Of a stretch of 64,000 nucleotides of DNA, positions 1,338-33,680 are shown piece after piece. The notes under the pieces were generated by a model. It did not search any database. It worked only from the letters and a program-made list of their open reading frames with translations, and was not told the origin of the DNA. The translations under genes were made by a program, and so were the position numbers. Source of the DNA: an uncultured Pirellulales bacterium (GTDB taxonomy: Bacteria; Planctomycetota; Phycisphaerae; Sedimentisphaerales; Anaerobacaceae); contig CAZTDF010000001.1 of NCBI GenBank assembly GCA_964612465.1, forward strand, positions 2,660 through 66,659, in the 5' to 3' direction. Positions within the stretch are counted from its first letter, which is position 1, and each line of letters begins with the position of its first letter.

Positions 1338-2618
1338 TTGTATATAAGACTCGACATGGATATACCAAGAAAATCTCGAAAAGTCAGGCGTATCGTAATC
1401 CGCATTATTGTTGTGATAATCACGGTCGCAGTCATTACTGTGATTACTCTGGGTCTGTCGCGATTAGAGCCGGCGGCACCATCTGTCGAGCGTCAAACAC
1501 TTCTGATTGACGGTGTTAAGCGAGGTGATATTATCCTTGAAGTCCGTGGTGTCGGCACGCTCATATCGGAAGATATGCTCGTCGTGCCCTCACGAGTTAG
1601 CGGTCGTGCATTGCGCATTTTGATTCAGGCCGGAGCTCCTGTCGAGCCTAATACTGTTATCTTTGAGCTTGGCAATCCCCAGTTGGAATTGAATTGGAAG
1701 GATGCTCAGACCCAACTCAACTCGGCTCAGGCGCAATTTGAGGCTTCAAAGGCCCAACTCCTGAATCAGGAATATACATACAAAGCTGGTATTGCAGCAA
1801 CCGAAGCTCTCGTTAGTAATGCCAGACTCACGTTTGAAGTGGACAAAAAGCAACATGAGGATGGCTTAATTTCCGACCTTCGACTGAAGTTATCAAAAAG
1901 TAACGTTGATCTACTGGAAAACCAGTTAGATGTCGAGAAGAAACAATTTGACGTATGGCTTAACCAGACCAAACCGGCACAGTTGGTGCTGGACAAAGCT
2001 TCGCTCGAGCGGGCGCGGTCTCAGTATAATCTCGCAGAAGAAGACTACATGTCATTGAAGGTGCGTGCAGGAGCAACTGGTGTTCTCGCTCCGATTCAGG
2101 TTCCCATTGAACTGGGTCAGCAGATCGGAGCAGGTCAGATTGTGGCTCGGATCACAAATCCACATCAGCTCATTGCGCGTCTTCAAATCCCTCAAGGTCA
2201 GGCTCGGGATGTACGGATTGGATTGCCCGCAGAGATCGACACCTATAACGGAGTTGTATCAGGCCGTGTTTCGCGTATCGAGCCGACTGTCATGGAAGGT
2301 AATGTGACCGTAGACATATCGCTGGATGGGGAGTTACCCAAAGGATCCCGGCCGGATTTATCGGTGGTCGGGACGATAGAAATCGAACAGCTCATCGACA
2401 TATTATACGTAGGCCGCCCCGTGCTCGCCTCGGCAGACAGCAAGGTCGAGCTATTTAAGCTTATCGAAGACGACCGGTTCGCCGTGCGCGTCCCCGTACA
2501 GTTCGGCAAAACCTCGGTCAGTACTATCGAAGTGCTCAACGGTCTGGTTGTTGGCGATCAGATCATCCTCTCTGATGTATCGCAGTGGGATACGGTGGAT
2601 AAAATACGTTTGAAGTAA
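1338..2618 (+). CDS. Periplasmic adaptor (membrane fusion protein, HlyD/MacA type) of a tripartite efflux pump
   Basis: N-terminal TM helix IVIRIIVVIITVAVITVITLGL. Long coiled-coil segment (QLELNWKDAQTQLNSAQAQFEASKAQLL ... LDVEKKQFDVWL). Beta-rich C-terminal half. Lies 2 nt upstream of the ABC ATPase ORF. The start could also be the ATG at 1356. Confidence 0.75.
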   Translation: MYIRLDMDIPRKSRKVRRIVIRIIVVIITVAVITVITLGLSRLEPAAPSVERQTLLIDGVKRGDIILEVRGVGTLISEDMLVVPSRVSGRALRILIQAGAPVEPNTVIFELGNPQLELNWKDAQTQLNSAQAQFEASKAQLLNQEYTYKAGIAATEALVSNARLTFEVDKKQHEDGLISDLRLKLSKSNVDLLENQLDVEKKQFDVWLNQTKPAQLVLDKASLERARSQYNLAEEDYMSLKVRAGATGVLAPIQVPIELGQQIGAGQIVARITNPHQLIARLQIPQGQARDVRIGLPAEIDTYNGVVSGRVSRIEPTVMEGNVTVDISLDGELPKGSRPDLSVVGTIEIEQLIDILYVGRPVLASADSKVELFKLIEDDRFAVRVPVQFGKTSVSTIEVLNGLVVGDQIILSDVSQWDTVDKIRLK

Positions 2619-2698
2619 TTGTGTGTTCACAGTTATTAGTCCACAGAAAAAAGAAAGTTATGATTACAAACAGTAATCTGGAATCCGGAGAACAAATA

Positions 2699-3412
2699 AT
2701 GAAAGACTCTAATGATGCACTTATCAAGATTGAAGATCTCCACAAGGTTTTTGTCACGGAAGAAGTGGAAACCCATGCCCTTTCTGGGGTGTACCTGAAG
2801 ATCCAAAAAGGTGAGTACGTTTCTATCGCCGGGCCCTCTGGCTGCGGCAAGTCCACGCTGCTGTCAATCATGGGCCTGCTGGATTCACCCACAAAGGGGG
2901 ACTACTGGCTCAACGGCTCTCCAGCGGCAGAGCTGTCGGCCTCGCAGCGAGCGCGTATCCGGAACAGAGAGGTGGGATTCATTTTTCAGAGCTTTAACCT
3001 TATCGGAGACCTGACCGTGCACGAGAACGTGGAGCTGCCCTTGACCTATCGGCGTATGCCCAAGGCCGAACGACAGCAGCGTGTACATACTGCCCTGGAA
3101 CGTGTTGCCATGGCCCACCGTATGAAGCACTACCCCAGTCAGCTTTCCGGGGGTCAACAGCAGCGTGTGGCTGTTGCACGCGCCTTGGCCGGCACCCCGG
3201 CGATTCTGCTGGCCGATGAGCCGACAGGGAATCTCGACTCGGCTAATGGCAAGGCTGTGATGGATCTGTTGGCGGAGCTTCACAGCGAGGGCGCCACAAT
3301 CTGCATGGTTACCCATGATGAACGCTACGCCCACTACGCCCATCGGGCGGTGCATTTGTTTGACGGCCGAATCGTAGATGAAGAGCAAGCGTCAAAAGAG
3401 CAGATAACATAA
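2699..3412 (+). CDS. ABC transporter ATP-binding protein, MacB/LolD type (ATPase 1)
   Basis: Walker A GPSGCGKST, signature LSGGQQQRV, Walker [14 protein letters not shown]-loop MVTHD. Start chosen at ATG 2699, which has GGAG 8 nt upstream. The ORF is open from 2621, and ATG 2660 is also possible. Confidence 0.85.
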   Translation: MKDSNDALIKIEDLHKVFVTEEVETHALSGVYLKIQKGEYVSIAGPSGCGKSTLLSIMGLLDSPTKGDYWLNGSPAAELSASQRARIRNREVGFIFQSFNLIGDLTVHENVELPLTYRRMPKAERQQRVHTALERVAMAHRMKHYPSQLSGGQQQRVAVARALAGTPAILLADEPTGNLDSANGKAVMDLLAELHSEGATICMVTHDERYAHYAHRAVHLFDGRIVDEEQASKEQIT

Positions 3413-3500
3413 AAGTAGATCACAGTTGGATGAAGAGACCCGAAAATTCTGTTGTGATTAGTGATCTTCAATCGGTGAGTTATAAACACGAAGAAATACC

Positions 3501-6029
3501 ATGACGACCTTAATCAACGACTTAAAATATGCGTTTCGTATGCTGGCTAAGCGTCCCGGTTTCACGGCCATTGCCCTGATCACATTGGCGATCGGCATCG
3601 GGGCCAACACGATTATGTTCAGTGTGGTCAATACTCTGCTGTTTCGACCGCTGCACGTCAAAGACCCCGACCGATTGGTGCGCTGTGAGTTTGATAAGTT
3701 CCGTCTCGTCATTTATGCGGGCTATGTCGACCTGCGTGACAATAATCCGGTGTTCAGTGATCTCATCTCCCACAATTATGCCAGAAGAACCTGTACCCTG
3801 GTAAGAGACGGCAGTGCAAGGCATGTGGATCCGCTGTACGTCACGGCCAACTACTTCGACGTCCTGGGGGGTGCACCCCTCTATGGGCGGACTTTCTTGC
3901 CTGAGGAGGAAGTCGCCGGTAGCGAGCCGGTGGTGGTCCTGAGCTACCGAACTTGGCAGCGCCTGGGGGCTGAGCCCGAGATCGTGGGCCAATATGTGCG
4001 TCTCACTGGTAAGCTTTTTAGAATCATTGGCGTTGTACCAAAGACGTTCACAGGCGCATCCGTCATCGGCCCCGACCTCTGGTTGCCTCTGGGCACGTAC
4101 GGTCTTGTGGGCAGATACTATAAAGAGAAGCCGGAGAAGCCGGATGACCGATGGCACTATGCGCCATCGGTCTTAGTGGGACGACTCAAACCTGGCGTGA
4201 GCATATCGGAGGCGCAAGCATGGCTACAATCTATGCTCCCACGCCTGAAGCAGATTGATCCCTGGATGTTTAAAGAGAAGGTCTCGTTTCGCCTCCGCCC
4301 GTTGCCCAGACTCAGCGCCGGTGCTGGCGACAATGACAGGCCCACATTGGGTCGTATCAGCCTGGGTTTGATGGGAATCTCCGGGATCATCCTGCTCATT
4401 GCCTGCCTGAACCTGGCGAGTATGATTGTCGTTCAAGGAGAGGGGCGCCATCGAGAGATCGCCATCCGTGCGGCCATCGGGGGGGGGCGTCTGAGGATCA
4501 TGCGGCAGTTACTTATCGAATCGCTTCTCTTGGCCGTATTCGGAGGTATCCTGGCTGTGGCCGTAGCCCTCTGGGGCATCAGGATTCTCAAGCTGTGGGC
4601 GGCGATGGGTCAGCTTCCCATGCAGTTGGGGGAGGCCATCGCCTCTGGAATCACGCTTGATGTGCGCGTCTTGGGAGCCACATTGAGTTTCTGCCTGATT
4701 GCCACCGTACTCTTCGGCCTGAAACCGGCCCTGCGCCTATCAGGACGCGATCTCTGTGGTGACCTGAAAGAATCCGGTCGAGGTGTACTTCAAGCCACGC
4801 GAACAAGGCGATGGTTCGTACCACGCGGCCTGTCGGTGCTCTGTCAAATGGCCCTGTCTGTTGCGCTCGTCATGTGCGCGACACTCTTGGCTCGAACCGC
4901 GCTGAGGGCCACCCGGACCGAACCAAGTTTTGGCCTGGACGGTAAGCTGATCGTCAGCCTGGAGGCATTCGCAGGAGGGTACAACATTGTTCAAGCAAAG
5001 CAAGCCTGCGAGACCTTGGCCGAGCGATTGCAGGATGTCCCCGAGATTCAGGCAGTTGGCCTGTCTTATAAATCGCCTGTGGACCTGGGGTGGTGGCCTT
5101 GGAGTAAGGAAAGAGTCATCGAGTATGCGCCGGGCCGCGCAGACGAAACGTCAGGCAGCCTATTGACGAAGGCACTTCACGAGTACGAGGTGAACGGCGA
5201 TTACTTCAAGGCGATGGGAATTCGGCTCTTACAAGGCCGGCCCTTTCGCCATCTCGACAGTGCCCCCGATGCAGAGGAAGTCGTGATCATCGATGAGCTT
5301 CTGGCCCGCAAACTCCGGCCGGATGGCAGTGCCCTTGGTTGTCTCATCCAGTATGGCGATGACGGGTTATCGTCGCCCCGCCGAGTGGTCGGAATCGTAC
5401 CGAACCTACAGAGCGTTTGGGGCAATGGGGAAGTTCAACCCCATGTCTATAGCCCACTCAAAGCCCACCATGTACCTGAATCCATCCATCTGCACGCCAG
5501 AAGTACGGCATCGGGAGCCGAGGCCGCCCTCGTGCGAAGCATCGGCGCGCGCATTCGAAAGATCGATCCTCGTCTACCGGTCCTCTCGGTAGCGTCTCTG
5601 GCGGACCAACATCGCAATCATCCCACCGTATTGTTCACGAGAGTCGTTGCCCGACTTGCAGTGATGTTTGGGGCCATGGCCCTGTTCCTGGCCGGTATGG
5701 GCCTTTATGCTGTCAAGAGCCATAGGGTCGCCTCGCGCACCCCTGAGATTGGCATCCGCATGTCGTTGGGCGCCACTCGGCGGGACGTCCTGACCCTGGT
5801 ACTGCGTCAGGGCTCAATATCGACGTTCGTAGGGCTGCTGGTCGGCACGCTACTGGCGATCGTCATGACGCGGGTGATTCGCAGCGTGCTCCACGGCATC
5901 AGTACCATTGATCTTGTGAGCATCGTTGTCACCGTGGCTATGCTCACAGCTACTTCACTGCTGGCCAGTTGCCTCCCGGCGCGTCGGGCTGCGAAGATCG
6001 ATCCGATGGAAGCATTGCGGTATGAATGA
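3501..6029 (+). CDS. Duplicated FtsX/MacB-type ABC permease, ADOP-like paralog 1 (subgroup A)
   Basis: N-term [41 protein letters not shown]. Two FtsX modules ([27 protein letters not shown]; [15 protein letters not shown]), each after a large periplasmic domain. C-term [23 protein letters not shown]-like RBS region before the ATG. Confidence 0.9.
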
Positions 6030-6067
6030 TGAGTAATGATTGTTGAATAAAAACCAAAGGGAATACC

Positions 6068-8536
6068 ATGACAGCCCTTATCAATGACATCAAATATGCC
6101 CTTCGAATGTTAACCAAGAAACCCGGCTTCACGGCCATTGCCCTGATCACCCTGGCGATTGGTATTGGGGCCAATACCATCATGTTCAGCATCTCCGATC
6201 TGTTGTTGCTGGCTCATCCGGGAAAAGTGAAAGCACCTGAGCAGTTGGTGTATTGCGGATTTCAAGACCCGGAAGCACTTGGGTTTCGTTACTCCGAGTA
6301 TCTCACTATCCGTGACAGCGGTCTGGTCTTTAGCGATCTCTTAGCTCAAAGTTTTTGTCCACCTGGGGGAACACTGGTTCATAGAGGATCGGTCCAGCAA
6401 GTTGAGGGATCATATGTTTCAGCGAACTACTTTTCCGTTCTGGGAGTGACGCCGATCCGAGGACGCGGTTTTATGCCGGAGGAAGAGCAGGGTGGCGCTC
6501 GTGTCGTGGTGTTAAGCTGGCTCTGCTGGCAGCGTTTGGGGAGCAATCCTGAGCTTGTTGGGCAATTTGTGAGAGTTGATGGTATTCGTTGTGAGGTCGT
6601 CGGTATCATGCCAAAAGGATTTACCGGTGTCACGTTCAACGGCCCTGACCTATGGCTACCGCTGGGAAGCTACCGGTCTGTCTCTAAAGTGGCTCGACAG
6701 TGGCCGAGACACCAACTGTGGTTTGACCTCGTCGGTCGACTCAAAACTGATTTGACGCTGCCGGTCGCCCAGGGACAGCTCCAGTCGTTGTTTTCGGATT
6801 TCAAACCTGAAGGCCTTGAGCAAGACAGCCGGCCGCCTTTTTTCAAGCTCCGCAAGCCAAGCCGGTTCTGGTTGTTCCTTGAGTATGATGAAGAGGACTA
6901 TTTACGCAAGCCCTTGTTCAATGCCATACTCTTAGCAACGTCCGCTATTATACTGGTAATCGCCTGCCTGAATCTGGCGAATATGTTGATTGTGCAAGGG
7001 GCAGCGCGTCAGCATGAGATAGCTGTACGCCTGGCCCTTGGCGGGGGACGCTGGCGCATCATTCGGCAGTTGTTCACTGAATCGTTGCTCTTGGCCCTGC
7101 TGGGCGGCATGTTAGGTGTGCTATTGGCTTTTGGAAGTATGAAAATCCTTAATACCTGGATAACAACCACTCCGGATTATTACGCAAGAGGTCTGCAGGC
7201 AGGTTTGAATAGTCGTGTCCTGGCGGTCACACTGGGCCTGTGCCTGATCGCCACGCTGCTCTTCGGATTGAGACCTGCGTTATGGTTGTCAAAGCGTGAC
7301 CTTGCCGGCGAGATGAAGGCTTGTGCCGGTAGTGTCCTGGGATCCCTGCGGAGAAAGCGAGATGCACTCGCTGTGATGGGGCAGATCGCCCTGGCTGTGA
7401 CGCTTGTGCTCAGTGCGGTGCTACTGACGCGAAGTGCCCTGCAAATCGCACAGACGGATCCGCGTTTTCCTTTAGATGATAAGTTGATTGTGAAAATCGA
7501 TCCGCTGGCGGCCGGGTACGACCCGGCCCGTAGTGTTCAGGTATGCGAGACTTTGACAGATCATCTGGCATCCCTGCCGGAGGTAAAAGCATTGGGGGCA
7601 TCAATCCGATTGTTCTACGGGGGTGGCGGGCCGATATCGATTAGCGAGAGTTTTCAGAGCGGATGGTGGAGGCCTTTCACCCGGAAAGCTATGCTGGTCA
7701 CGGTCAGTCGGGATTATTTTACGGCCATGGAGATCCCGCTTTTACAGGGGCGATTCTTTACCCCGATGGACCGAGTCCCGAATGCGGAAAAAGTCACGAT
7801 TATCGATGACAGCCTGGCGCGCCGGCTCCGGCCGGACGGTAATGTGCTCGGCTGTTCTATCCGATGGGGTATGTACAGCGAACATTCAGCGCCTTATCGT
7901 GTCGTGGGCATTGTCGCCAACCTGCCGGGCGTAGGAGATCGAGAGGTCTATCCCCAGATATATACATCTGCGGGATCGGAAGAGCTGTCTCCCTGTCTTT
8001 ACGTACATGTCGCCAACAGGGGATCGGTGGATGCCCTGCGGCGGCGCATAGTGGAGGAGATTCGCAGTATTGATGCACGCGTTCCGGTCCTACCGGTGGT
8101 GACTTTGGCCCGGAGACGCGATGGGGATGCAGCCGTATGGCGAGCGAGATTCTGCGCCCGCTTGGGATTGGTAGCTGGGGCTGCAGCGTTGTTTCTATCA
8201 GCACTGGGCATCTTTGCGATCAAGGGCTACATGGTCGCCTCACGCACCTCCGAGATTGGCATTCGCATGGCACTGGGGGCCACGCACGGAAGTATTATGG
8301 GAATGGTCCTGCGGGAGGGCGGCATTGTGACGGTGGTGGGATTGTTGGTTGGGATGGGGCTGGGCCTTGGTGTGGCCAAAGTGTCAGTTCATCTGCTTTA
8401 CGGTGTCAGTCCGATCGACCCGGTCAGCATAGTTGTCACTGTGGCACTACTCGGAAGCGTTTCGCTGTTGGCCAGCTACGTTCCTGCCCGTCGGGCAGCA
8501 AAGATCGATCCGATGGAGGCGTTAAGATACGAATGA
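6068..8536 (+). CDS. Duplicated FtsX/MacB-type ABC permease, ADOP-like paralog 2 (subgroup A)
   Basis: N-term [41 protein letters not shown]. Modules HEIAVRLALGGGRWRIIRQLFTESLLL and EIGIRMALGATHGSI. C-term [17 protein letters not shown]. Confidence 0.9.
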   Translation: MTALINDIKYALRMLTKKPGFTAIALITLAIGIGANTIMFSISDLLLLAHPGKVKAPEQLVYCGFQDPEALGFRYSEYLTIRDSGLVFSDLLAQSFCPPGGTLVHRGSVQQVEGSYVSANYFSVLGVTPIRGRGFMPEEEQGGARVVVLSWLCWQRLGSNPELVGQFVRVDGIRCEVVGIMPKGFTGVTFNGPDLWLPLGSYRSVSKVARQWPRHQLWFDLVGRLKTDLTLPVAQGQLQSLFSDFKPEGLEQDSRPPFFKLRKPSRFWLFLEYDEEDYLRKPLFNAILLATSAIILVIACLNLANMLIVQGAARQHEIAVRLALGGGRWRIIRQLFTESLLLALLGGMLGVLLAFGSMKILNTWITTTPDYYARGLQAGLNSRVLAVTLGLCLIATLLFGLRPALWLSKRDLAGEMKACAGSVLGSLRRKRDALAVMGQIALAVTLVLSAVLLTRSALQIAQTDPRFPLDDKLIVKIDPLAAGYDPARSVQVCETLTDHLASLPEVKALGASIRLFYGGGGPISISESFQSGWWRPFTRKAMLVTVSRDYFTAMEIPLLQGRFFTPMDRVPNAEKVTIIDDSLARRLRPDGNVLGCSIRWGMYSEHSAPYRVVGIVANLPGVGDREVYPQIYTSAGSEELSPCLYVHVANRGSVDALRRRIVEEIRSIDARVPVLPVVTLARRRDGDAAVWRARFCARLGLVAGAAALFLSALGIFAIKGYMVASRTSEIGIRMALGATHGSIMGMVLREGGIVTVVGLLVGMGLGLGVAKVSVHLLYGVSPIDPVSIVVTVALLGSVSLLASYVPARRAAKIDPMEALRYE

Positions 8537-8566
8537 AAATCAATAATTGATGAGTTAAGGACGGCA

Positions 8567-10984
8567 ATGAAGACTTTATGGCAAGATATTCGTTACGGCG
8601 TTCGGATGTTAACCAAACGGCCCGGATTTACTGTTACAGCGGCCCTTGTATTGGCCCTGGGGATAGGTGCTAACACCGCCCTGTTTAGCGTGGTTCACAG
8701 TGTTTTGTTAAGTCCGCTGCCGTTTAAGGATGCCGAACGCATCGTTCTGGTGCAGACGCTCTGGCGTTCCTCTGGTGGAAGGGGAAGCGTTTCCGGGCCG
8801 GACTATATCGACTGGGACGAGCGCAACAGAGTAATGGAAGGATTGAGTGCCTTCGACACCTGCCGGTTAAGTCTTACCGGAGCAGGCGAGCCATTGGCCT
8901 TACAGGGTTTTCGTACAACAGTCAATTTTTTCGATGTTTTAAGGCCTAAACAAATGGCTCTGGGGCGCAGTTTCCGTCCGGATGAATCACAAACGGGGAA
9001 CCACTACGTCACAGTATTGAGTCATAATCTCTGGCGTGACCGCTTTGATTCGGATCCGAATATCATCGGTAAGCCGATCACCCTGGATAGCGCTCCCTAT
9101 ACAGTTGTCGGCGTAGCAGGACCCGCGATGGGCTTTATTGAAGAGATGGTTCGCATCTATGTCCCCCTACAGCGGGAGGAATTGATCAAGGGACACCGCG
9201 GCAGCCATTACCTCAACGTGTTAGGACGTATCAAACCTGATGTCTCGTTTGCCCAGGCCCAGGCCCAGATGGACCAGGTCGCTATGCAGGTTGAAAGAGA
9301 GAATCCTAACTCGAATGTCAATAAGGGAGTGCGCATCGAACCTCTTCACGAGATGTTAATCGACAGTGTACGCACGGCCTTTCTCGTTTTGTATGGAGCT
9401 GTAACGGTCCTGCTTCTGGTTGCCTGTGTGAATGTTTCCAATTTGCTTGTTGCAAAAGCATCGGCACGCAGTCGGGAGATTGCCATACGTCAGGCTTTAG
9501 GTGCAGGCCGGGTGCGGCTAATGCGGCAATTGCTAACCGAAAGCATCTTACTTGGTATACTCGGCGGCATCCTCGGACTCATCTTGGCCTTCTGGAGTCT
9601 GGATATGCTTCAATTGATAGCCCCTAAGATTCAACAAACCGGCGGCGGCGGAATCCCCGGATTTGAGGAAATCCGAGTGAGCCTGCCTGTGCTGGGATTC
9701 ACGATTGGCTTGTCCCTTATTGCCGGATTACTCTTCGGTATGGTTCCGGCATGGCAGGGTTCACGTCACGGCCTGAGCAACACATTGAAGGAAACGGGCC
9801 AAAGTGTCTCTCGCGGCCGCACACGTCACCGCACGTTGGGTACGCTTGTCGTTGCACAAATCGCCCTTGCAATGATTCTGCTGACCGGGGCGGGTTTGCT
9901 AATTAAAAGCTTTATCAAACTACAACAGTCTAATCCCGGATTTAAAGCCGATAGGCTTCTGGCTCTGCATGTGGTGCGTCCCGACAACTCAGAAAATCGT
10001 AATCAACGACACCGCGTTGACTATTTCAATAGAGTTATTGAGAAGTTGGCTGCCATGTCGGGTGTGGAAGCTGCCGGAGCGATTGACATGCATCCCATGA
10101 ATCCATCAAACAGTAATAGCTCGTTCAGTATTGTCGGGAAAGAGGGTTCGCCGTCCGCTGAGAACCGTATGGTGTCTTGCGACTACTTTCGCTGTCTAAG
10201 CATACCCCTGATGCAGGGGCGAACCTTTACACCTCAGGATAACGATCAAAGTCAGCGTGTAGTGGTTGTTAATCGAGAACTTGTACGACGTTATCTCCCC
10301 GATCGGGATCCGATTGGACAGGTGATCAACTTTTGGGGAAGTGAAAGAACGATCGTAGGAGTAGTGGGAGACGTTAAAATCAGAACCTTGCGAAGTGACG
10401 ACTACTCGGCTTTTGTCTATATGCCCATCGCACAGCAATGTAGGTACAACATGACCTTTTTCATTTGTACTACTGGTGATCCCATCCAATGGGCCAGCGC
10501 CGCTCGAAAAGTTTTGTGGGATATTGATCAGAGTCAGCCGATTCTTTATGTGGAAACCATGGATCAACTCGTTCTGAATTCCATCTCGGTCGAACGCTTT
10601 TGTGCGATTCTCTTGACTGTAATGGCCGGCGTGGCCCTGATCATGGCTCTTGTGGGGCTCTATGGCGTGATGGCCTTTGCTGTTACGGAACGTCGTAACG
10701 AGATCGGTATCCGTATGGCTCTCGGTGCACAGGGCACAGATATTCTTCGCTTGGTTATCAAGAAGGCCTTTGTTCTGACAATCATCGGTCTGGCGATTGG
10801 TCTGGCGTGTACTTTAGCCGTCTGTCGTCTTATGACCAGCCTGCTCTACAGTATCAGCGTATACGACCCGGCGACGTTTGTGCTGATTCCTGTGTTGCTC
10901 TTCACTGTGGCTATGCTGGCTTGTTATCTCCCGGCACGCAAGGCCGCGCAGTTGGACCCCCTGGAGACGCTCCGCTATGAATGA
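8567..10984 (+). CDS. Duplicated FtsX/MacB-type ABC permease, ADOP-like paralog 3 (subgroup C)
   Basis: N-term [41 protein letters not shown]. Modules REIAIRQALGAGRVRLMRQLLTESILL and EIGIRMALGAQGTDI. C-term PARKAAQLDPLETLRYE. Confidence 0.9.
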   Translation: MKTLWQDIRYGVRMLTKRPGFTVTAALVLALGIGANTALFSVVHSVLLSPLPFKDAERIVLVQTLWRSSGGRGSVSGPDYIDWDERNRVMEGLSAFDTCRLSLTGAGEPLALQGFRTTVNFFDVLRPKQMALGRSFRPDESQTGNHYVTVLSHNLWRDRFDSDPNIIGKPITLDSAPYTVVGVAGPAMGFIEEMVRIYVPLQREELIKGHRGSHYLNVLGRIKPDVSFAQAQAQMDQVAMQVERENPNSNVNKGVRIEPLHEMLIDSVRTAFLVLYGAVTVLLLVACVNVSNLLVAKASARSREIAIRQALGAGRVRLMRQLLTESILLGILGGILGLILAFWSLDMLQLIAPKIQQTGGGGIPGFEEIRVSLPVLGFTIGLSLIAGLLFGMVPAWQGSRHGLSNTLKETGQSVSRGRTRHRTLGTLVVAQIALAMILLTGAGLLIKSFIKLQQSNPGFKADRLLALHVVRPDNSENRNQRHRVDYFNRVIEKLAAMSGVEAAGAIDMHPMNPSNSNSSFSIVGKEGSPSAENRMVSCDYFRCLSIPLMQGRTFTPQDNDQSQRVVVVNRELVRRYLPDRDPIGQVINFWGSERTIVGVVGDVKIRTLRSDDYSAFVYMPIAQQCRYNMTFFICTTGDPIQWASAARKVLWDIDQSQPILYVETMDQLVLNSISVERFCAILLTVMAGVALIMALVGLYGVMAFAVTERRNEIGIRMALGAQGTDILRLVIKKAFVLTIIGLAIGLACTLAVCRLMTSLLYSISVYDPATFVLIPVLLFTVAMLACYLPARKAAQLDPLETLRYE

Positions 10985-13507: not shown

Positions 13508-13542
13508 GAAAAACAGAATAAAGAATACAGAAGGAATGACAT

Positions 13543-18531: not shown

Positions 18532-18622
18532 AACGTGTAGCGATTTATTAGTTGTTGGTTATTCGTTGTTCATTGGAATTGCTTAGAACTATGAACTACG
18601 AACTAAAAATTGGAGTTATAAG

Positions 18623-21061: not shown

Positions 21062-21107
21062 TTCCGAAAGAATACAGAATGGAAGAAATAAGATATTTAA
21101 GGAATTA

Positions 21108-23639: not shown

Positions 23640-23679
23640 TTGAAAACGAATACAGAAAACAGAATACGGAAGCAAAATT

Positions 23680-24377
23680 ATGATTAAACTTAACCACATT
23701 CAAAAACGTTACAACACACGTGCAGGATTTGTCTATGTGCTGCAACAGATCAACCTGACCATCGAAAAAGGAGAATTCGTCACCATCATGGGCCCATCCG
23801 GGGCAGGTAAAACAACGTTGCTGAACATCATCGGCATGTTGGACGGTGAGTGGGAGGGCGAGTATTATCTTGATGAGAATCCTGTGCACGAACTCAAGCC
23901 AAAGAACCGCCTAGCTCTGAACCGGCAATATATCGGCTTTGTCTTTCAGAACTTCAATCTGCTGGATAGTCTTACTGTATACGAGAATCTGGAGGCCCCG
24001 CTGTCCTATCGCAATGTCAAGGGCTCCGAGCGAGCGAGCATCGTCTGCGATACACTGGATCGTTTCAGCATTGTGGGCAAGAAAGACCTTTTCCCCAGCC
24101 AGCTCTCCGGCGGCCAGCAGCAGCTTGTGGGTGTAGCGCGGGCCGTAGTAGCCAGCCCCAAGCTGATCCTTGCGGACGAGCCTACAGGCAATCTGCATTC
24201 GAGTCAGGGCAAGGACGTAATGGCCCTGCTCAAGAAGCTCAATCGCGAGGGCACCACGATAATCCAGGTGACGCACAATGAAGGTTATGCCGCCTACGGC
24301 AATCGCATAATCAAACTCAAAGACGGCTGGCAGGACGGCGAGGTCGTAATCGAACAATCGGTCAAGAAGGAGAATCT

Positions 24378-24381
<4 letters not shown>
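23680..24381 (+). CDS. ABC transporter ATP-binding protein, MacB/LolD type (ATPase 2)
   Basis: Walker [10 protein letters not shown], signature LSGGQQQLV, Walker [14 protein letters not shown]-loop QVTHN. The stop TGA (24379-24381) overlaps the ATG (24378) of the next permease in an ATGA overlap. Confidence 0.9.
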
Positions 24382-26852
<2,471 letters not shown>

Positions 26853-26901
26853 TTGAGCGAGAATACAGAATACAGGAGACAGAATTCAAAAGGAACAACA
26901 A

Positions 26902-29430
26902 ATGAAGACGATATGGCATGACATACGTTATGGTCTCCGAATGTTGAGGAAGAAACCGGGATTCACGGCGATTGCCCTGATTACCCTTGCTATCGGCATC
27001 GGGGCCAACACGATCATGTTCAGCGTTGTCAATGCACTGGTCTTTCGGCCGGTACAGGTCAAGGAGCCCGAGAAGCTGGTATGCTGCAAGATTCGCAACT
27101 TCGGGCTCGGAATAACACCCTATTCCGCTTATCAGATGATTCGTAACGACAGTCAGGTATTCAGCGATCTGATGGTCCAGGACGATGGTTTGGGATATGT
27201 CACTTTGGCGCATGGGCAGAAAGCCAGGCAAGTCTGCGGGATGTTTGTTTCGGCCAACTACTTTTCCTTCCTGGGCGTTACACCCGAATTCGGACGGGGT
27301 TTTCTGCCTGAGGAGGAGCGTCAGAACGCACCATCTGTTGCGATCCTGAGTTTCCGTGCCTGGCAGCGACTGGGCGGTGATCCGGAGATGGTGGGTCAAC
27401 ATCTCCGCGTCAACGGCGTATCCTGCGAGGTCGTTGGGGTAGCGCCGGAGGGATTCACCGGAGTCACGCACCTCGGCCCGGACCTTTGGCTGCCTCTGGG
27501 GAGCTATCTGCGCGTGGTTCGCCTGTCCCGGGGTATAAACAGGCCCGGCAAAGAAGCGAGTGACTGGGGTTATCCCGGTGTCATACCCGTGGGACGACTC
27601 AAGCCGGGTCTGAGCATGTCGGCGGCCCAGGCACAGTTGCAGGCACTTACCCCCCGGCTCAAGGAGCAATATCTGAGACAATGGAAGGGGAATTGCTCGC
27701 TTTACCTTCACCGTCCGCCCAGGTTCGCCATAATCAATGACGACCGTGAGGGGGCTGCAATGGCCGCTTTCAGTCTGATACTTATAGGGGTTTCTGTTGC
27801 CGTCCTGCTTATCGCGTGTCTTAACCTTGCGGGCATGATGATTGTTCAGGGGACCAGGCGCCATCGCGAGATCGCCGTTCGTTTAGCTCTCGGTGGAAGT
27901 CGTATTCTAATCATAAGGCAGCTGCTAATTGAGTCGATGCTGTACGCACTGCTCGGAGGAGCCTTCGGCCTTTTGCTGGCCTTCTGGGGCACGAGGGCTA
28001 TAAATACATGGATAGCAGCTGTACAAGGGCCTCTTGATGCCGGTGCTGCATTAAGAGTCGGTATAAATATGCCTGTACTGGCAGTTACCCTGGGATTCTG
28101 CTTGATTGCCACCATTCTCTTCGGCCTCAGGCCGGCTCTGGGGCTGTCGCGTCGAGATATCATTGGTGAACTGAAAGAATCGGGCAGTGTTATGCTCCGG
28201 CCCTTTAAAAGAAAACGGGGCCGTTTATCCTTGTTTTGTCAGATCTCGCTGGCTGTTGTGCTTGTGATGGGTGCGGTACTCTTTACGCGTGGTGCGCTAA
28301 AAGCCCTTCGACCTAGTTCCGATTTCAGCTTTAAAGGCAAGCTGCTCGTTAAGCTCGATACGTTCGCCGCAGGTTATGACCTGGCGCAAAGCAGGCAGGT
28401 TTATGAAACACTGGTTGAGCGATTGCGGTCGCTTCCGGGAATACGAACTGTCAGCCTGTCGGCCTCATCCCCCTTTGCCGAGGGCGGCGGCTATGGCGGG
28501 GTTGTTCGCGAATACGTACCGGGCATAGAAAACGACAAAAGCCGAGAAAGTGGAGCGTCTCCGCGTCCCGTTAAAGGCGCACCCCATGTACACACAGTAG
28601 GGGCCGATTACTTCGAGGCAGTGGGAATGCCTCTATTACAAGGCCGGCCCCTGCAACGTCTCGACAGCGTCCCTGATGCGGAAAAGGTCGTGATCATCGA
28701 CGAACAGATCGCTCGACGACTCCGGCCGAACGGCAACGCCCTCGGGTGTCTGATTACATATGGTATGGAGACATCACCATTTCGTGTGGTAGGGATCGTA
28801 CCAACATTGCGAATTGCCACTGACGATGAAGTCCCATCCCCCCAAATCTACTTACCGATGGCGGCCGACAGTCGGCCTACCTTCATTCATATTCGCGCCG
28901 CAGAGACCCTGCCTGAAAATGAAGTCGATCTGCAGGAAAACATTCGCATATTAATTCGAGAGATAGATCCTCAGTTACCAATCCTGTTACTGAAAAGTCT
29001 GGCGGACTGTTACTATGATAATCCTTTCGTTTGGATGGCGACAATAGGTGCAAAGCTGGCAGCCATCTTCGGGGCGATGGCCCTGTTCCTGGCGTCGCTG
29101 GGGATTTATGCGGTCAAGGGCTACATGGTGGCTTCGCGCACTCGAGATATCGGCATTCGCAAGGCCCTTGGCGCAACGCAAAGTGACATCATGGGCATGG
29201 TCATCCGGGAGGGAATGGTACTGACAGTGATAGGATTGATCGTTGGATTGTTTCTGGCCTTCGCTATAGGGCGACTGATTAGTAGCCTGCTCTACGGCGT
29301 CAGCCCGGTGGATCCTTTGAGTATCGCCGTGGCCGTGGCATTGCTTGGAATCGCCTCGATGCTGGCCAGCTATATCCCCGCCCGCCGGGCGGCAAAGATC
29401 GACCCGATGGATGCATTGAGATATGAGTGA
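26902..29430 (+). CDS. Duplicated FtsX/MacB-type ABC permease, ADOP-like paralog 10 (subgroup A)
   Basis: N-term [41 protein letters not shown]. Modules REIAVRLALGGSRILIIRQLLIESMLY and DIGIRKALGATQSDI. C-term [17 protein letters not shown]. Confidence 0.9.
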   Translation: MKTIWHDIRYGLRMLRKKPGFTAIALITLAIGIGANTIMFSVVNALVFRPVQVKEPEKLVCCKIRNFGLGITPYSAYQMIRNDSQVFSDLMVQDDGLGYVTLAHGQKARQVCGMFVSANYFSFLGVTPEFGRGFLPEEERQNAPSVAILSFRAWQRLGGDPEMVGQHLRVNGVSCEVVGVAPEGFTGVTHLGPDLWLPLGSYLRVVRLSRGINRPGKEASDWGYPGVIPVGRLKPGLSMSAAQAQLQALTPRLKEQYLRQWKGNCSLYLHRPPRFAIINDDREGAAMAAFSLILIGVSVAVLLIACLNLAGMMIVQGTRRHREIAVRLALGGSRILIIRQLLIESMLYALLGGAFGLLLAFWGTRAINTWIAAVQGPLDAGAALRVGINMPVLAVTLGFCLIATILFGLRPALGLSRRDIIGELKESGSVMLRPFKRKRGRLSLFCQISLAVVLVMGAVLFTRGALKALRPSSDFSFKGKLLVKLDTFAAGYDLAQSRQVYETLVERLRSLPGIRTVSLSASSPFAEGGGYGGVVREYVPGIENDKSRESGASPRPVKGAPHVHTVGADYFEAVGMPLLQGRPLQRLDSVPDAEKVVIIDEQIARRLRPNGNALGCLITYGMETSPFRVVGIVPTLRIATDDEVPSPQIYLPMAADSRPTFIHIRAAETLPENEVDLQENIRILIREIDPQLPILLLKSLADCYYDNPFVWMATIGAKLAAIFGAMALFLASLGIYAVKGYMVASRTRDIGIRKALGATQSDIMGMVIREGMVLTVIGLIVGLFLAFAIGRLISSLLYGVSPVDPLSIAVAVALLGIASMLASYIPARRAAKIDPMDALRYE

Positions 29431-29472
29431 GAAAAACAGAATAAACAACACAGAAGACAGAAGGAATTAGAA

Positions 29473-31989
29473 ATGAGAACTATATGGCAAGACATGCGTT
29501 ACGGACTTCGCCAGTTACGCAAAAAACCGGGATTTACGGCCATCGCTCTGATTACTCTGGCCATCGGCATCGGGGCCAATACGTTGATGTCCAGCATCGC
29601 CGATTGGCTACTGTTTCTTCAGCCCAGACATGTGAAGAACTACGAGCAGTTGGCGTGCTGCGATGTCCGCGCCGCGTCTGATTATACAACTTACATCACC
29701 ATCCGTGACAGCGTCTCGGCCTTCAGCGATGTCATGGCTCAGAGTCGCGACGGTATGGTAGGAGATGTCACTGTGGTTCGTGAGCAGACGGCCTGGCACG
29801 GCAAGGCAACGTACGTTTCGTCGAACTACTTCTCTTTTTTGGGAGTCGCGCCCGTCCTGGGGCGGGGCTTCCTGCCCGGCGAAGACCAGCAAGGCAGCGC
29901 TCCGGTCGTGGTGCTGAGCTATCCCCTCTGGCAGCGGCTGGGGGGCGATCCGAAGCTCGTCGGCGAGTATGTGAACGTCAACGGCGCTGTTTGTCAGGTT
30001 GTCGGTGTGGCGCCGCAGGGGTTCACCGGCACCTCGCTCCTGGGGCCCGGCCTCTGGGTGCCGCTGGGCAACTGGGTGTCGATGGGCAGCATCGGAACGA
30101 TTCGGATGCGGGAACAGACTCGGCCCGCCAACGCCGGGGCCGGTTGGGGCTATCCTTGGGCGCTTCATGCCATCGGACGACTCAAGCCGGGCGTGAGCAT
30201 GTCGGTTGCCCAGACACAATTGCAATTCCTAATCCCGCGTTTTCGAGCAGAGGATCCGGAAGAGTGGCCGGCTGTTGCTTCCTTTTCTCTTCGCCCGCCT
30301 GACCGGCTCTTCCTTGATTCGATCAATCTTCCGTATCTCACCAAATACAGTCTGATCCTGATGGCCGGGTCCGTGGTCACCCTGCTGATCGTCTGCTTGA
30401 ACTTGGCGAGCATGCTGATCGTGCAGGGAGCCTCGCGCCACCGTGAGATCGCCATCCGATTGGCCGTCGGCGGAGGCCGCCTGCGGATTATTCGGCAGTT
30501 GCTCGTCGAGTCTGCGCTGTTGGCGCTGCTGGGAGGAGTTCTCGGTGTTCTGCTGGCGGTCTGCGGGATGCGGATTCTCAATGTATGGTTCGCCGGCGCC
30601 AATTGGGAAGTGATGAGAGCTATCCGAGTTGGCCTGGACATTCGCATTCTGATGGGCACACTGGGTTTCTGCCTGATCGCTACGTTGCTGTTCGGTCTAA
30701 GACCTGCTCTGAGGCTGTCCCGGCGTGATCTTGCCGAGGAGATGAAGGGATCCGCCAGTGGCGTGCTGGGGTCCGTCCACCGCAAGCGAGGCGGTCTTTC
30801 GGTAGCGGGCCAGATCACGCTGGCCGTAGTCCTGGTCCTCGTCGCTGCCCTGCTGTTGCGCAGTGCCCTGGAGACAGCGCGGCCGGACCCACGGTTCCAC
30901 CTGGAGGACACGCTGGTCGTTCGGATCGATCCGGAATCGTCCGGCTATGACAAGGTCCGGAGCATGCAGGCATGCGAGACCCTGGCTGATCATCTGGCGT
31001 CCCTGCCGCCAGTCGAGGCGCTGGGGACAGCACCCAACCTGTTCTACGGGGGTGGCGGGGAGCAAACGATACGCGAATACCGGCCGGGGGAAGAAGGCGA
31101 GCCCTGGAAGCATCGCGCACGACACGCCAACATGCTCGCCATAGGCCGGGACTACTTGCCGGCGCTGGAGGTCCCGCTGCTGCAGGGGCGCCTCTTCGAC
31201 CGGCGAGACAGTGTCCCCGACGCGGAGAAGGTCGCGATCATCAATGAAACCCTGGCGCACAGGCTTCGTCCCGACGGCAGTGCTCTCGGCTGTCTGGTCC
31301 AATGGGGCGTGCCTGAACTTGGTGGCTACTGGTGTCCCGATGTCTACCGGGTGGTCGGGGTCGTCACCGGCCTGCCGGGCATACAGGACCGGGAAGCGAG
31401 TTTCCAGATGTACGTACCCGCCGCCGGACCGGATGACTTACCTTCTTACTTCTACCTGCACGTCAGAGATCGTGAAGCGGTCGAGACTCTACGGTCGCAG
31501 ATGGTCGAGGAGATCCACCGGGTCGATCCGCGTATCCCGGTTCTGTCGGTGACGACTCTGGCAGAGATACACGATACTGATTTCAGAGTATGGTATGCGA
31601 GATTCCACGCTCGTCTGGCACTGACGGCCGGGGTGGTGGCTTTGTTTCTGGCGGCGCTGGGCATCTATGCCATCAAGGGCTATATGGTCACTTCGCGCAC
31701 GTCGGAGATCGGTATCCGTATGGCCATGGGGGCTACGCGCAGGAGCATCATGGCCATGATCCTGCGAGACGGACTGGTGCTGACGGTGGTCGCACTACTG
31801 GTAGGCTTGCTGCTGGGTTTGGCTGTCGCGCGGGTAGGGGCCAGCCTACTCTACGGCGTCAGCCCGGTCGATCCGGTCAGCATCGTAGCAACCGTGGCCC
31901 TGCTCGGCGGCGTTTCCCTCCTGGCCGGCTACTTCCCGGCCCGCCGGGCGGCAAAGATCGATCCAATGAAGGCACTTAAATATGAATAA
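29473..31989 (+). CDS. Duplicated FtsX/MacB-type ABC permease, ADOP-like paralog 11 (subgroup A)
   Basis: N-term [41 protein letters not shown]. Modules REIAIRLAVGGGRLRIIRQLLVESALL and EIGIRMAMGATRRSI. C-term [17 protein letters not shown]. Confidence 0.9.
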   Translation: MRTIWQDMRYGLRQLRKKPGFTAIALITLAIGIGANTLMSSIADWLLFLQPRHVKNYEQLACCDVRAASDYTTYITIRDSVSAFSDVMAQSRDGMVGDVTVVREQTAWHGKATYVSSNYFSFLGVAPVLGRGFLPGEDQQGSAPVVVLSYPLWQRLGGDPKLVGEYVNVNGAVCQVVGVAPQGFTGTSLLGPGLWVPLGNWVSMGSIGTIRMREQTRPANAGAGWGYPWALHAIGRLKPGVSMSVAQTQLQFLIPRFRAEDPEEWPAVASFSLRPPDRLFLDSINLPYLTKYSLILMAGSVVTLLIVCLNLASMLIVQGASRHREIAIRLAVGGGRLRIIRQLLVESALLALLGGVLGVLLAVCGMRILNVWFAGANWEVMRAIRVGLDIRILMGTLGFCLIATLLFGLRPALRLSRRDLAEEMKGSASGVLGSVHRKRGGLSVAGQITLAVVLVLVAALLLRSALETARPDPRFHLEDTLVVRIDPESSGYDKVRSMQACETLADHLASLPPVEALGTAPNLFYGGGGEQTIREYRPGEEGEPWKHRARHANMLAIGRDYLPALEVPLLQGRLFDRRDSVPDAEKVAIINETLAHRLRPDGSALGCLVQWGVPELGGYWCPDVYRVVGVVTGLPGIQDREASFQMYVPAAGPDDLPSYFYLHVRDREAVETLRSQMVEEIHRVDPRIPVLSVTTLAEIHDTDFRVWYARFHARLALTAGVVALFLAALGIYAIKGYMVTSRTSEIGIRMAMGATRRSIMAMILRDGLVLTVVALLVGLLLGLAVARVGASLLYGVSPVDPVSIVATVALLGGVSLLAGYFPARRAAKIDPMKALKYE

Positions 31990-32000
31990 GGAACCATGAA

Positions 32001-33680
32001 ATGCAAAAAAGAAGACTATGTAAACATATGACAAAGCCTGAGGAACACAAGTGTTGCATTTGTCAATGGCTTGTATCCGCCTTAGCTTTGCTGGCGCTGG
32101 CGGGTTGTCCCGCTCCAACTTTGAAAGAGAATCCAAAGGTCGAGACTTTGACCATGGGACTTGATACGATTGATACTGTCCAACCGAAGGACCTTTCGGA
32201 TTCGCCACCGGTTTCCGTTGAACAGGCCACTGCAGAAGTCACCGAGCAGATCGGCGAGCCCAATGAGTTGATCCCTGTGATTGAGCTGACGCTCGAACAA
32301 GTACGCGCTGCTACTCTGGCCAACAACCTGGATCTCAAGATCGATCTAATCGATCCTGCTATTGCACAGCGAGCAGTTGACATTGAACGCGCCAAGTTCG
32401 AAACGACCTTCTATGGCTCTGCGGTATATAGCACCTCAGAGACAAAAGAAGGGATATCATCCACAAGCAATGAATATGATATGGGTATAGAAAGCCCTCT
32501 GCACACCGGCGGTTCGATCGCGGTAGGTTTGCCTTTCGGAGAGTTTGACTCCGACGATTCCGACAGTATGGCCGATGCTGCGATTAGTGTCTCTTTCATC
32601 CAATCTCTGCTCAAGGGGGGGGGGACTCGCATCAATACCCATTCAATTCGCATCGCCGGTTATCAAAAACACGCTGTCGATGCCCAGACCAAACAGACTA
32701 CTATTTATCTGCTGGCGGCTGCTGACATCGCCTACTGGCGTCTCTATATGGCTTGCCGAGAACTTGATATCCGTCGTGAGCAATACAAGCTGGCCCAGGA
32801 TCAACTCAATCATGCTCGTCTTAAAGTGGCCTCGGGCTCATCTCCCAGGATCGAAATTGTGCGCGCCGAGGCAGGCCTGTCCAGTCGGATTGAGGCGCTT
32901 ATCAACGCCGAGACGACGGTTCAAAACCGCCAGCTTGATTTGCAACGCATTATGAACCAGGAGGATATGCCGCTCAATGCGAACATAAAGATCACTCCGA
33001 AGACCGAACCAAATCCACTGGGACTGGACATCGACGAGGAAAAGCTTGTCGGAATCGCGCTCGGAAATCGCATGGAGACCGTCCGGCTTGAATTGCAGTT
33101 GGCTATAGATGAGCTGGACGTCGAATTAGCGCATAATGCAATGCTGCCCGACCTTAAGTTCAATTACAGTTACACCACTCAAACGCAGGCTGGTGATGCT
33201 GGCCATGCCCTTGGAGATTTTGGGGACAAAAATTCTGATTACCATTCCATCGGTCTTTCCGCAAGTATTCCCCTGGGTAACCAGGCTGCCAAAATGCGTG
33301 TGGAGAGGGCGAAACTTCAGCAGCTTCAGGACCAGGCTAGTTACGCCAGGCTCCGTCAGATGATCCAGCAGGAAGTATATAACACGGTCAGGGCATTGCG
33401 AAATAGCTGGCGACGTATTCTGGCCGCTGAAAAGTCTGTTGATGCCGCATACCGTGACTATAAGGTTGAACAATCGCAGTTTCAGCTTGGTCGGAGTAGG
33501 AGTACGGATGTATTATACTCCGCAACGGGTCTGGCGGATGCACAACTGAGCAGGATTCGTGCTCTTACCGAATACGAAATTGCTCAGATTTATCTTGCCC
33601 AGGCGACAGGGACACTGTTGGGATACAGCCGGATAATTTTAGAGCCGACAGATATTCAGGCTCTGAGTGACATTCGCTAA
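32001..33680 (+). CDS. Outer-membrane efflux protein (TolC/NodT-type lipoprotein)
   Basis: Signal peptide with lipobox LLALAGC. Two internally similar alpha/beta halves with long helical segments typical of OEP-family proteins. It is the last gene of the efflux block, 11 nt after permease 11. Confidence 0.8.
   Translation: MQKRRLCKHMTKPEEHKCCICQWLVSALALLALAGCPAPTLKENPKVETLTMGLDTIDTVQPKDLSDSPPVSVEQATAEVTEQIGEPNELIPVIELTLEQVRAATLANNLDLKIDLIDPAIAQRAVDIERAKFETTFYGSAVYSTSETKEGISSTSNEYDMGIESPLHTGGSIAVGLPFGEFDSDDSDSMADAAISVSFIQSLLKGGGTRINTHSIRIAGYQKHAVDAQTKQTTIYLLAAADIAYWRLYMACRELDIRREQYKLAQDQLNHARLKVASGSSPRIEIVRAEAGLSSRIEALINAETTVQNRQLDLQRIMNQEDMPLNANIKITPKTEPNPLGLDIDEEKLVGIALGNRMETVRLELQLAIDELDVELAHNAMLPDLKFNYSYTTQTQAGDAGHALGDFGDKNSDYHSIGLSASIPLGNQAAKMRVERAKLQQLQDQASYARLRQMIQQEVYNTVRALRNSWRRILAAEKSVDAAYRDYKVEQSQFQLGRSRSTDVLYSATGLADAQLSRIRALTEYEIAQIYLAQATGTLLGYSRIILEPTDIQALSDIR

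Follow-up and report, generated by a model that had tools for sequence, protein, structure and literature searches.

The DNA analysed here (the window) spans 64,000 nucleotides, from position 2660 to position 66659 of contig C1 (CAZTDF010000001.1) in the metagenome-assembled genome (MAG) of an uncultured Pirellulales bacterium (GCA_964612465.1), which the GTDB lineage places in the Sedimentisphaerales (Planctomycetota). The MAG measures 4.77 Mb in 375 contigs, is 93% complete and has a GC content of 49.7%. Eleven tandem genes in the first half of the window, P1 to P11, encode duplicated-FtsX permeases of the ADOP family (TIGR03434, 'acidobacterial duplicated orphan permease'), and they are bracketed by genes for a periplasmic adaptor, two ABC ATPases and an outer-membrane duct. 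The open reading frames between positions 1338 and 33680 follow the order adaptor, ATPase-1, eight permeases, ATPase-2, three permeases and TolC-like lipoprotein, all on the plus strand, as the initial annotation of this stretch had read them. From ATPase-1 onwards, the spacers measure 88, 38, 30, 42, 35, 90, 91, 46, 40, -4, 49, 42 and 11 nt (range -4 to 91 nt). Permease coding sequence amounts to 9085 codons, or ~27.3 kb, and the eleven permease genes contain no frameshifts or internal stops, in agreement with the unbroken paralogs described initially.

Immediately ahead of the array lies a two-component system. Its NtrC-type response regulator (456 aa; REC, Sigma54_activat and HTH_8 domains) is encoded just upstream of the window at C1:1144-2514, and the sensor histidine kinase occupies window positions 1-1185 on the plus strand, with its 5′ end 143 nt before the window; the full protein has 443 aa, with two transmembrane (TM) helices, HisKA and HATPase_c. 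The periplasmic adaptor (1356-2618, 420 aa) is a membrane fusion protein of the MacA/HlyD type with an N-terminal TM anchor and matches to HlyD_3, HlyD_D23 and RND_mfp; weak matches are to DarC in NCBIfam and to MacA and MexJ in PDB. Its reading frame opens at 1338, and the likely true start is the ATG at 1356, as in orthologues. Similarly, the frame of ATPase-1 (2699-3412, 237 aa) opens at 2621 and likely starts at the ATG at 2699, where the GGAGAACAAATA-ATG context (ribosome-binding site) is the same as in a sister-genome orthologue. ATPase-1 has intact Walker A, signature, Walker B and H-loop motifs, and the catalytic motifs of ATPase-2 (23680-24381, 233 aa), which overlaps P9 by 4 nt, are likewise intact. 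The array closes with a TolC/NodT-like outer-membrane factor (32001-33680, 559 aa) that carries two OEP domains and the lipoprotein signal LALAGC.

Pfam profiles resolve each of the eleven permeases into two MacB_PCD and two FtsX domains, with no nucleotide-binding domain (NBD). The ADOP identity proposed initially is borne out by hidden Markov model searches, since all eleven match TIGR03434 end to end over model positions 1-803 with ~669-950 bits, above the curated NCBIfam cut-off of 622.3 bits. They are not members of the MacB equivalog NF007826, against which they score 70-158 bits vs a cut-off of 966 bits. The ADOP family was reportedly first described by Ward and colleagues in 2009. The present copies resemble it in length (~800-840 aa), doubled MacB_PCD and FtsX domains, N-terminal helix and C-terminal tail. 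Unlike the 'orphans' of the family name, all ADOP genes of this genome stand in one operon with adaptor, ATPases and duct, and in a phylum that rarely carries the family.

In a maximum-likelihood tree of 244 ADOP sequences, four of the copies belong to clade A: P1 (3501-6029, 842 aa, 702.8 bits; orthologues 87-92% identical in sister genomes G004 and G007), P2 (6068-8536, 822 aa, 679 bits), P10 (26902-29430, 842 aa, 703.7 bits) and P11 (29473-31989, 838 aa, 669.5 bits). Clade B is formed by P4 (11027-13507, 826 aa, 874.6 bits), P5 (13543-16014, 823 aa, 889.9 bits; orthologue in G001 91% identical, dN/dS 0.10) and P7 (18623-21061, 812 aa, 776.1 bits). P3 (8567-10984, 805 aa, 914 bits), P6 (16105-18531, 808 aa, 903.9 bits; grouping with genes of the L008 array), P8 (21108-23639, 843 aa, 790.5 bits) and P9 (24378-26852, 824 aa, 949.5 bits) each represent a lineage of their own. 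Pairwise identity among the eleven is 29-57%. Of the four subgroups that had been suggested, {P1, P2, P10, P11} (48-57%) and {P4, P5, P7} (45-55%) are recovered and P8 stands alone as proposed; {P3, P6, P9} is only weakly defined (36-39%).

The contrast drawn initially between conserved membrane-proximal parts and divergent periplasmic domains holds in the alignment. Per-column identity is 0.55-0.78 in the N-terminal helix and TM1, in TM2 and the first cytoplasmic loop, in the second cytoplasmic loop and in the C-terminal tail, vs 0.09-0.4 in both periplasmic domains. All eleven copies retain every family-invariant residue. The conserved N-terminal helix and the C-terminal tail, PARRAxKxDPMxALRYE, are hallmarks of the entire ADOP family, and can no longer be taken as evidence specific to this array. 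One departure is the C-terminus of P9 (26838-26852), which ends in ..KALCCE where the family has ..ALRYE; no other copy has cysteines in its C-terminal minor coupling helix.

The fold was examined in an AlphaFold model of P9, computed from a 95-sequence alignment (predicted local distance difference test score, pLDDT, 89.6; predicted template modelling score, pTM, 0.86). It comprises an N-terminal amphipathic helix, eight TM helices, two periplasmic alpha/beta domains (residues 49-275 and 463-683), coupling helices at 318-326 and 729-737, a cytoplasmic linker (410-425) that joins the halves, and a C-terminal helix (817-822). The first half runs through helix 19-48, domain 49-275 and helices 276-316, 318-326, 331-368 and 382-409, and this succession is repeated in the second half. 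A 4-TM module, a periplasmic domain between TM1 and TM2 and coupling helices are the features of the type VII ABC (MacB/FtsX) fold. Foldseek searches with the model return YbbP (9GE6, E 1e-19) as the best match over the full length, followed by MacB, Spr0695, LolE/LolC, BceB and HrtB; by sequence, each ADOP half matches MacB (5LIL, E 1e-44). As modelled, an ADOP protein is two MacB-type 4-TM modules fused head to tail via a cytoplasmic linker. The two halves are unlike each other, and their coupling-loop sequences are half-specific. About a quarter of the best ADOP representatives (P0121-P0270) are 870-900 aa long and match from residue ~70-85, which leaves an N-terminal extension of ~75 aa that is absent from the present copies.

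This architecture can be compared with solved type VII systems. YbbP, too, is a pseudo-symmetric double permease in a single chain; it has two Porter/Sabre periplasmic domains and associates with two separate ATPase subunits. It differs in having ten TM helices, including two linker helices, vs eight in the ADOP model, and sequence identity is 13-14%. In the YbbAP-TesA system (9GE6-9GE8), YbbA and YbbP assemble 2:1 via two coupling helices, with neither adaptor nor duct (PMC12646458). Because YbbP binds two ATPase subunits through its two coupling helices, one ADOP chain would constitute a full transmembrane unit, and hence need two NBDs. YbbAP-TesA uses a YbbA homodimer, a periplasmic hydrolase partner and one permease per system, unlike the present locus, where no hydrolase gene lies within 1338-33680; with eight modelled TM helices as well, the array does not belong to the YbbAP-TesA type. 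MacAB-TolC (5NIK, 5LIL, 5GKO) resembles the array in the MacB-matching halves (Foldseek E 1e-13 to 1e-15), the MacA-like adaptor and the TolC-like duct. MacB itself is an NBD-fused 4-TM homodimer with one permease gene per pump, whereas here the permeases are fused 8-TM pseudo-heterodimers, eleven in number, and the two NBDs are encoded by separate genes. MacAB-TolC expels periplasmic substrates by mechanotransmission (PMC5985334), which is the likely mechanism here too.

The head of the array bears the marks of sigma-54 control by a two-component bacterial enhancer-binding protein. Between the kinase and adaptor genes, 15 nt before the adaptor ATG, the plus strand carries TGGCACGCGACTTGT at 1327-1341 (TGGCAC-N5-TTGT), a predicted -24/-12 element with one mismatch to the sigma-54 consensus TGGCAC-N5-TTGC. 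The exact consensus stands at the same position in each of the three sister-species loci that extend over the array head (L083, L085 and L086), and this position is kept whether the first array gene encodes an adaptor or a permease. The adjacent response regulator matches Sigma54_activat with E 6e-64, and rpoN is present in the genome (397 bits). Sister species and Acidobacteriota loci likewise show the regulator-kinase pair linked to the array. The TM helices of the kinase are only ~7 residues apart, which identifies it as intramembrane-sensing. In this respect the locus is reminiscent of BceAB-BceS (7TCG, 8G3A), in which an intramembrane-sensing kinase that nearly lacks an extracellular loop is linked to a type VII permease. 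BceB differs in its one periplasmic domain and ten TM helices, and BceRS is an OmpR-type system of Firmicutes, which lack an outer membrane, vs the NtrC/sigma-54 type found here.

The array probably forms one transcription unit, because its genes share a strand, their spacers do not exceed 91 nt, ATPase-2 and P9 overlap by 4 nt, and the spacers hold neither a terminator nor a second sigma-54 motif. Sites resembling terminators or sigma-70 promoters were not found in any spacer, their counts being those expected by chance, which is weak negative evidence. We therefore infer a single sigma-54-dependent unit at 1327-33680, whose transcript would run from ~1353 to beyond 33680.

Several spacers (13512-13537, 21069-21080, 23648-23668, 26860-26885 and 29435-29467) are filled with a purine-rich heptad motif (GAATACA/GAAGACA, e.g. 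GAATACAGAATACAGGAGACAGAA). The motif also occurs on >20 other contigs of the MAG, among them C2, C12, C21, C22, C44, C50, C93, C126 and C163, often in tandem right after a conserved 'TTCGTATAAT..AACAAA' promoter-like box (TATAAT-like); GAATACAGAA alone has 29 exact copies genome-wide vs ~9 expected. GAATACAGAA was considered as an array-specific signal and rejected, as the motif is a genome-wide leader, probably a host-specific 5′-leader or translation element. The P6-P7 spacer (18532-18622) is distinct in holding three tandem GAACTAN heptads (GAACTATGAACTACGAACTAA).

ATPase-1 and ATPase-2, both of which match ABC_tran, are 45% identical. Their typing across 80 loci from other genomes, gathered with the permease alignment, assigned every array-linked ATPase to type 1 (66-76% identical to ATPase-1) or type 2 (57-71% identical to ATPase-2). 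One ATPase of each type is present in eight loci, two of the same type in none, and the two types are directly adjacent in L014, L029 and L062. A division of labour with one ATPase for eight permeases and the other for three is not upheld: two conserved orthogroups that occur together are more likely to be a heterodimer or generic partners. Because the two types are kept together and the ADOP halves differ from each other in their coupling loops, it may be an ATPase-1/ATPase-2 heterodimer that drives ADOP permeases.

The same arrangement of modules, with several ADOP genes among the components, recurs in the Acidobacteriota loci L048, L042 and L030. Identities to the window proteins in Acidobacteriota loci are 71-76% for ATPase-1, 57-67% for ATPase-2, 56-58% for the sigma-54 regulator, 39-51% for the kinase, 41-45% for the adaptor and 27-28% for the TolC-like gene. 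As expected of a tripartite pump, the adaptor and the OEP lipoprotein are encoded with the transporter, and this linkage is kept in sister species as well as in Acidobacteriota. Whole-genome searches found 1-3 type-1 and 0-2 type-2 ATPases in genomes with 11 to >46 ADOP genes, and every genome examined has ~5-20 ADOP genes per dedicated ATPase. This severalfold excess of 'orphan' permeases over their own motors in all of these genomes suggests that sharing is the rule of the family.

Sister genomes of the same genus retain the bracket, that is, regulator, kinase and promoter at the head and the duct at the end, but differ in the content and order of their permeases. G008 has only three, in the order adaptor, ATPase-2, P2 orthologue (90% identical), ATPase-1, P11 orthologue (91%), P10 orthologue (84%) and duct. 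In G001, two permeases stand between kinase and adaptor and at least six more on another contig, and some of these have no close counterpart here (35-43%). In G007, a P1 orthologue comes first, before the adaptor, and a P6-like gene comes after ATPase-2. Thus P2 is located after ATPase-1 in the window but after ATPase-2 in G008, with the reverse for P10 and P11, and this swap of adjacency argues against a fixed cis-pairing of ATPase and permease. The 226 nt that separate the P11 and P10 orthologues in G008 (L086:11378-11602, on G008:C85) preserve the remnant of a type-1 ATPase C-terminus (..TICMVTHDPRYTKHAQRTIHLFDGRIVEDE), which reads as the scar of a cassette rearrangement.

Divergence at synonymous sites (dS) separates the permeases from the chassis, by which we mean adaptor, ATPases and duct. 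The housekeeping baseline between this genome (G000) and G008 is dS ~0.2 (rpoN region). At 90-91% amino acid identity, the P2 and P11 orthologues have a dS of 0.16-0.25 and match this baseline, whereas identity in the same arrays is only 55-62% for adaptor, duct and kinase, and dS is ~1 for ATPase-2. Chassis and permeases have therefore had different histories, and a near-identical permease thus appears to work in clearly different chassis. The early proposal that few motor, adaptor and duct genes serve many permeases finds support here, since the severalfold excess of permeases, the swapped adjacency and the occurrence of near-identical permeases in ~55%-identical chassis all point the same way.

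The permease diversity itself is old, imported and assembled, with local expansion only within clades A and B. The window copies fall into at least six lineages (clade A, clade B, P3, P6, P8 and P9), each with different non-planctomycete sisters, and P9 shares up to 47% identity with acidobacterial proteins but at most 39% with paralogs of its own operon. Clade A has many relatives of 60-67% identity in MAGs labelled Phycisphaerae or Sedimentisphaerales. Direct repeats above ~80% identity between the paralogs are absent, and neither gene-conversion tracts nor a reverse transcriptase or template repeat was found; resemblance in DNA sequence is limited to the tail-spacer-head junctions, at 61-79%. 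Programmed or recent diversification was rejected for want of long repeats, reverse transcriptase or template repeat, and the notion of an array diversifying in situ does not survive the finding of ancient lineages interleaved with those of other phyla. A single recent transfer from Acidobacteriota followed by expansion in situ is likewise rejected by the tree. GC content at third codon positions (GC3) ranges from 0.53 to 0.74 within the operon (P7 0.53, P3 0.54, P11 0.72, P9 0.74), and suggests cassettes of different ages or donors.

Between orthologues, dN/dS is 0.10-0.41 for permeases (0.22 for P2 against G008) and 0.03-0.10 for ATPases and adaptor, so that all copies are under purifying selection overall, which may be relaxed in the periplasmic domains of clade A. 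The periplasmic domains of clade A reach dN/dS values of 0.3-1.2 (up to 1.17), with dS small and uneven, which makes them a weak test of positive selection. In clade A orthologue pairs (P1, P2 and P11 vs L085-L088), periplasmic dS is 2-4x lower than that of the membrane and cytoplasmic parts (P1 0.046 vs 0.194); within-gene recombination or selection could account for this.

Within the planctomycetes, the array is a patchily distributed accessory island, because ADOP genes are confined to few genomes at the level of genus, order and phylum. A genome-wide profile search places 11 of the 11 ADOP genes of this genome in the single array. Among 30 relatives, five genomes carry ADOP genes, always in tandem: the genome itself and four of the eight sister genomes of its genus. 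None of the 22 genomes from other genera of the order carries any, and in a sample of the phylum the family is present in three of 251 genomes, the present one included. Locus L091 (CP070782.1:473110-495590), from a complete 6.5-Mb Phycisphaerales genome, holds a clade-A ADOP gene beside a 146-aa ABC_tran fragment and a truncated 607-aa ADOP gene; with neither an adaptor nor a duct gene close by, the locus resembles a mini-array in decay.

Elsewhere the layout is real but common, and the array is less unusual than first thought. At least two ADOP genes are found in 30 of 40 loci of at least 19 kb, many of which they fill from edge to edge, and tandem runs reach 14 (G038:C10), at least 18 (G033:C99) and at least 15 (G031:C22). 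Several arrays of ten or more in Acidobacteriota MAGs share the bracket. P9 matched 72,566 of 1.84 billion cluster representatives at E <= 1e-30. In the literature, Dyadobacter genomes hold 28-33 ADOP copies by RAST annotation (PMC11573002). The single cluster described there lies on genomic island 43 of Psychroflexus torquis ATCC 700755, where about ten ADOP paralogs and genes for ATP-binding transporters take up ~42 kb, and its ADOP products are among the most abundant proteins of that organism (Feng et al., 2014, PMC3914696). By its published description, island 43 is similar to the present array in being horizontally acquired, with adjoining transposases and a combination of ADOP and ATP-binding genes. 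It differs in belonging to Bacteroidota and in holding a thioesterase and an addiction module, and a sigma-54 two-component head, a two-ATPase chassis and a shared-chassis model are not part of that description (PMC3914696). Arrays of this size and bracket are thus commonplace, as the initial annotation had allowed; that they are also characterised, its companion proviso, does not hold.

Taken together, these observations are probably best explained by a MacAB-TolC-like tripartite machine, encoded by a sigma-54 operon, that combines a constant chassis with exchangeable permeases. The adjacent NtrC-type regulator and intramembrane-type kinase would switch on the operon. A single adaptor anchored in the membrane, a single TolC-like lipoprotein as duct and a pair of different ABC ATPases would make up its chassis, into which any one permease could be loaded. 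Each ADOP permease would take two nucleotide-binding subunits, of which the two ATPase types would most likely provide one each, and the paired periplasmic domains of the loaded permease would set which periplasmic or membrane-borne compound leaves via the duct.

Several observations weigh against this explanation. The nearest solved fold, YbbP, works without adaptor or duct as a membrane extractor, together with a hydrolase (PMC12646458). The cytoplasmic contact elements are conserved throughout the family, and so provide no specific argument for sharing within the array, while the divergent periplasmic domains would all have to dock onto one adaptor. A heterodimer is not universal: G033 has three type-1 ATPases and one type-2 ATPase, and no type-2 ATPase was found in G001, though that MAG is only 78% complete. 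Finally, the three spacers of ~90 nt could conceal internal promoters that are not of the sigma-70 type.

The most serious alternative, although we consider it rather unlikely, is that complexes of ADOP permeases and ATPases are extractors or mechanotransmitters in the manner of YbbAP, LolCDE or BceAB, and not efflux pumps. Lipids, lipopeptides or targets of antimicrobial peptides would then be pulled from the inner membrane or handed to periplasmic partners, and no more than one or a few of the permeases would use the adaptor and duct. The full-length match to YbbP, with its 2 YbbA : 1 YbbP complex, fits this idea (PMC12646458), as does the BceS-like kinase, and most ADOP genes of Acidobacteriota lie away from adaptor and duct genes (in G035, for example, 7 of 11 are outside the chassis locus). 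The conservation of adaptor and TolC-like gene with the array, across phyla and within the genus, speaks for a pump instead; the operon also encodes no hydrolase or other periplasmic partner, and YbbP and BceB share the ten TM helices that the ADOP model lacks. If the machine is a pump, its ATPases might still be divided in cis, with an ATPase-1 homodimer for P1-P8 and an ATPase-2 homodimer for P9-P11 as sub-pumps that share adaptor and duct. The gene order in the window and the translational coupling of ATPase-2 and P9 by their 4-nt overlap would be expected from such an arrangement, which the gene orders of G008 and G007 make improbable, as orthologues of P2, P10 and P11 and a P6-like gene follow the 'wrong' ATPase there. 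Both types are, moreover, kept together in arrays of other phyla, sometimes side by side.

The number of permeases could also be deceptive, if only one or two of them worked and the others were drifting duplicates or recent imports with no distinct role. Permease content does vary by species, down to three genes in G008, and permease dN/dS (0.1-0.4) exceeds that of the ATPases (0.03-0.07), with values of 0.5-1.2 in the periplasmic domains of clade A. Redundancy of this kind is nevertheless very unlikely, for all eleven copies are full length, keep the family-invariant residues and score above the curated cut-off, and paralogs as ancient as these (29-57% identity) have stayed intact, with their orthologues under purifying selection overall. 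Least credible of all is an artefact of assembly or binning, in which a foreign array of higher GC was joined to a planctomycete contig at insertion sequence (IS) elements. Such a join is suggested by a GC content of 50-62% in the array vs 42-47% across the remaining contig, by the two transposase genes at the junction and by the rarity of ADOP genes in the phylum sample. Yet orthologous arrays, likewise headed by the regulator-kinase pair, occur in four MAGs of the genus that were assembled independently, public data (NCBI) assign near-identical permeases to Sedimentisphaerales, Phycisphaerae or Planctomycetota, the genome-wide heptad leader motif of the host stands in the array spacers, and the contigs of the MAG range from 42 to 56% GC around the genome mean.

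The preferred explanation, a shared chassis with exchangeable permeases, can be extended to a regulated envelope repertoire machine, a bolder proposal that we regard as doubtful. It would combine an obligate ATPase-1/ATPase-2 heterodimer, matching the two unlike halves of every ADOP permease, with a universal adaptor-duct socket. The intramembrane kinase would read pump activity, as BceS does, to drive the sigma-54 promoter. Recombination at the conserved tail-spacer-head junctions would let species acquire, lose and exchange permease cassettes, and each lineage would direct its periplasmic recognition set at the antimicrobials or metabolites that it meets in its habitat. One small conserved engine would then serve all of the tens of thousands of 'orphan' ADOP proteins of soil and sediment bacteria.

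ADOP proteins are among the largest uncharacterised transporter families of soil and sediment bacteria, with dozens in some genomes. The present locus is a compact and self-contained example, with ADOP genes, adaptor, two ATPases, duct and regulator in ~34 kb, and thus a convenient template for how one ABC motor may serve many membrane partners and how a heterodimer could match an asymmetric fused permease. Its value lies in this general model, not in the uniqueness of the locus. The elements new here are the conserved sigma-54 promoter with its intramembrane-type kinase, the two ATPase orthogroups with the heterodimer hypothesis, the 8-TM fused fold, the swapped adjacency of ATPases and permeases, and the mosaicism of chassis and permeases within one genus.

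Downstream of the duct, two IS transposase genes identified by Pfam, at 33980-35176 on the plus strand and 35275-36354 on the minus strand, bound the array and separate it from a magnetosome cluster of lower GC. A functional tie between pump operon and magnetosome cluster was considered and rejected; in G001 and G008 the duct gene is followed by an IS element or other genes, so that the two are not neighbours there, and their adjacency here is taken as coincidental. The two transposases differ in kind, one being of the DDE_Tnp_1 type and the other of the rve_3/DDE_3 type. In G008, an 88%-identical homologue of the second also lies 3′ of the duct gene (L086:16160-17041), so its IS either travels with the array end or repeatedly lands there.

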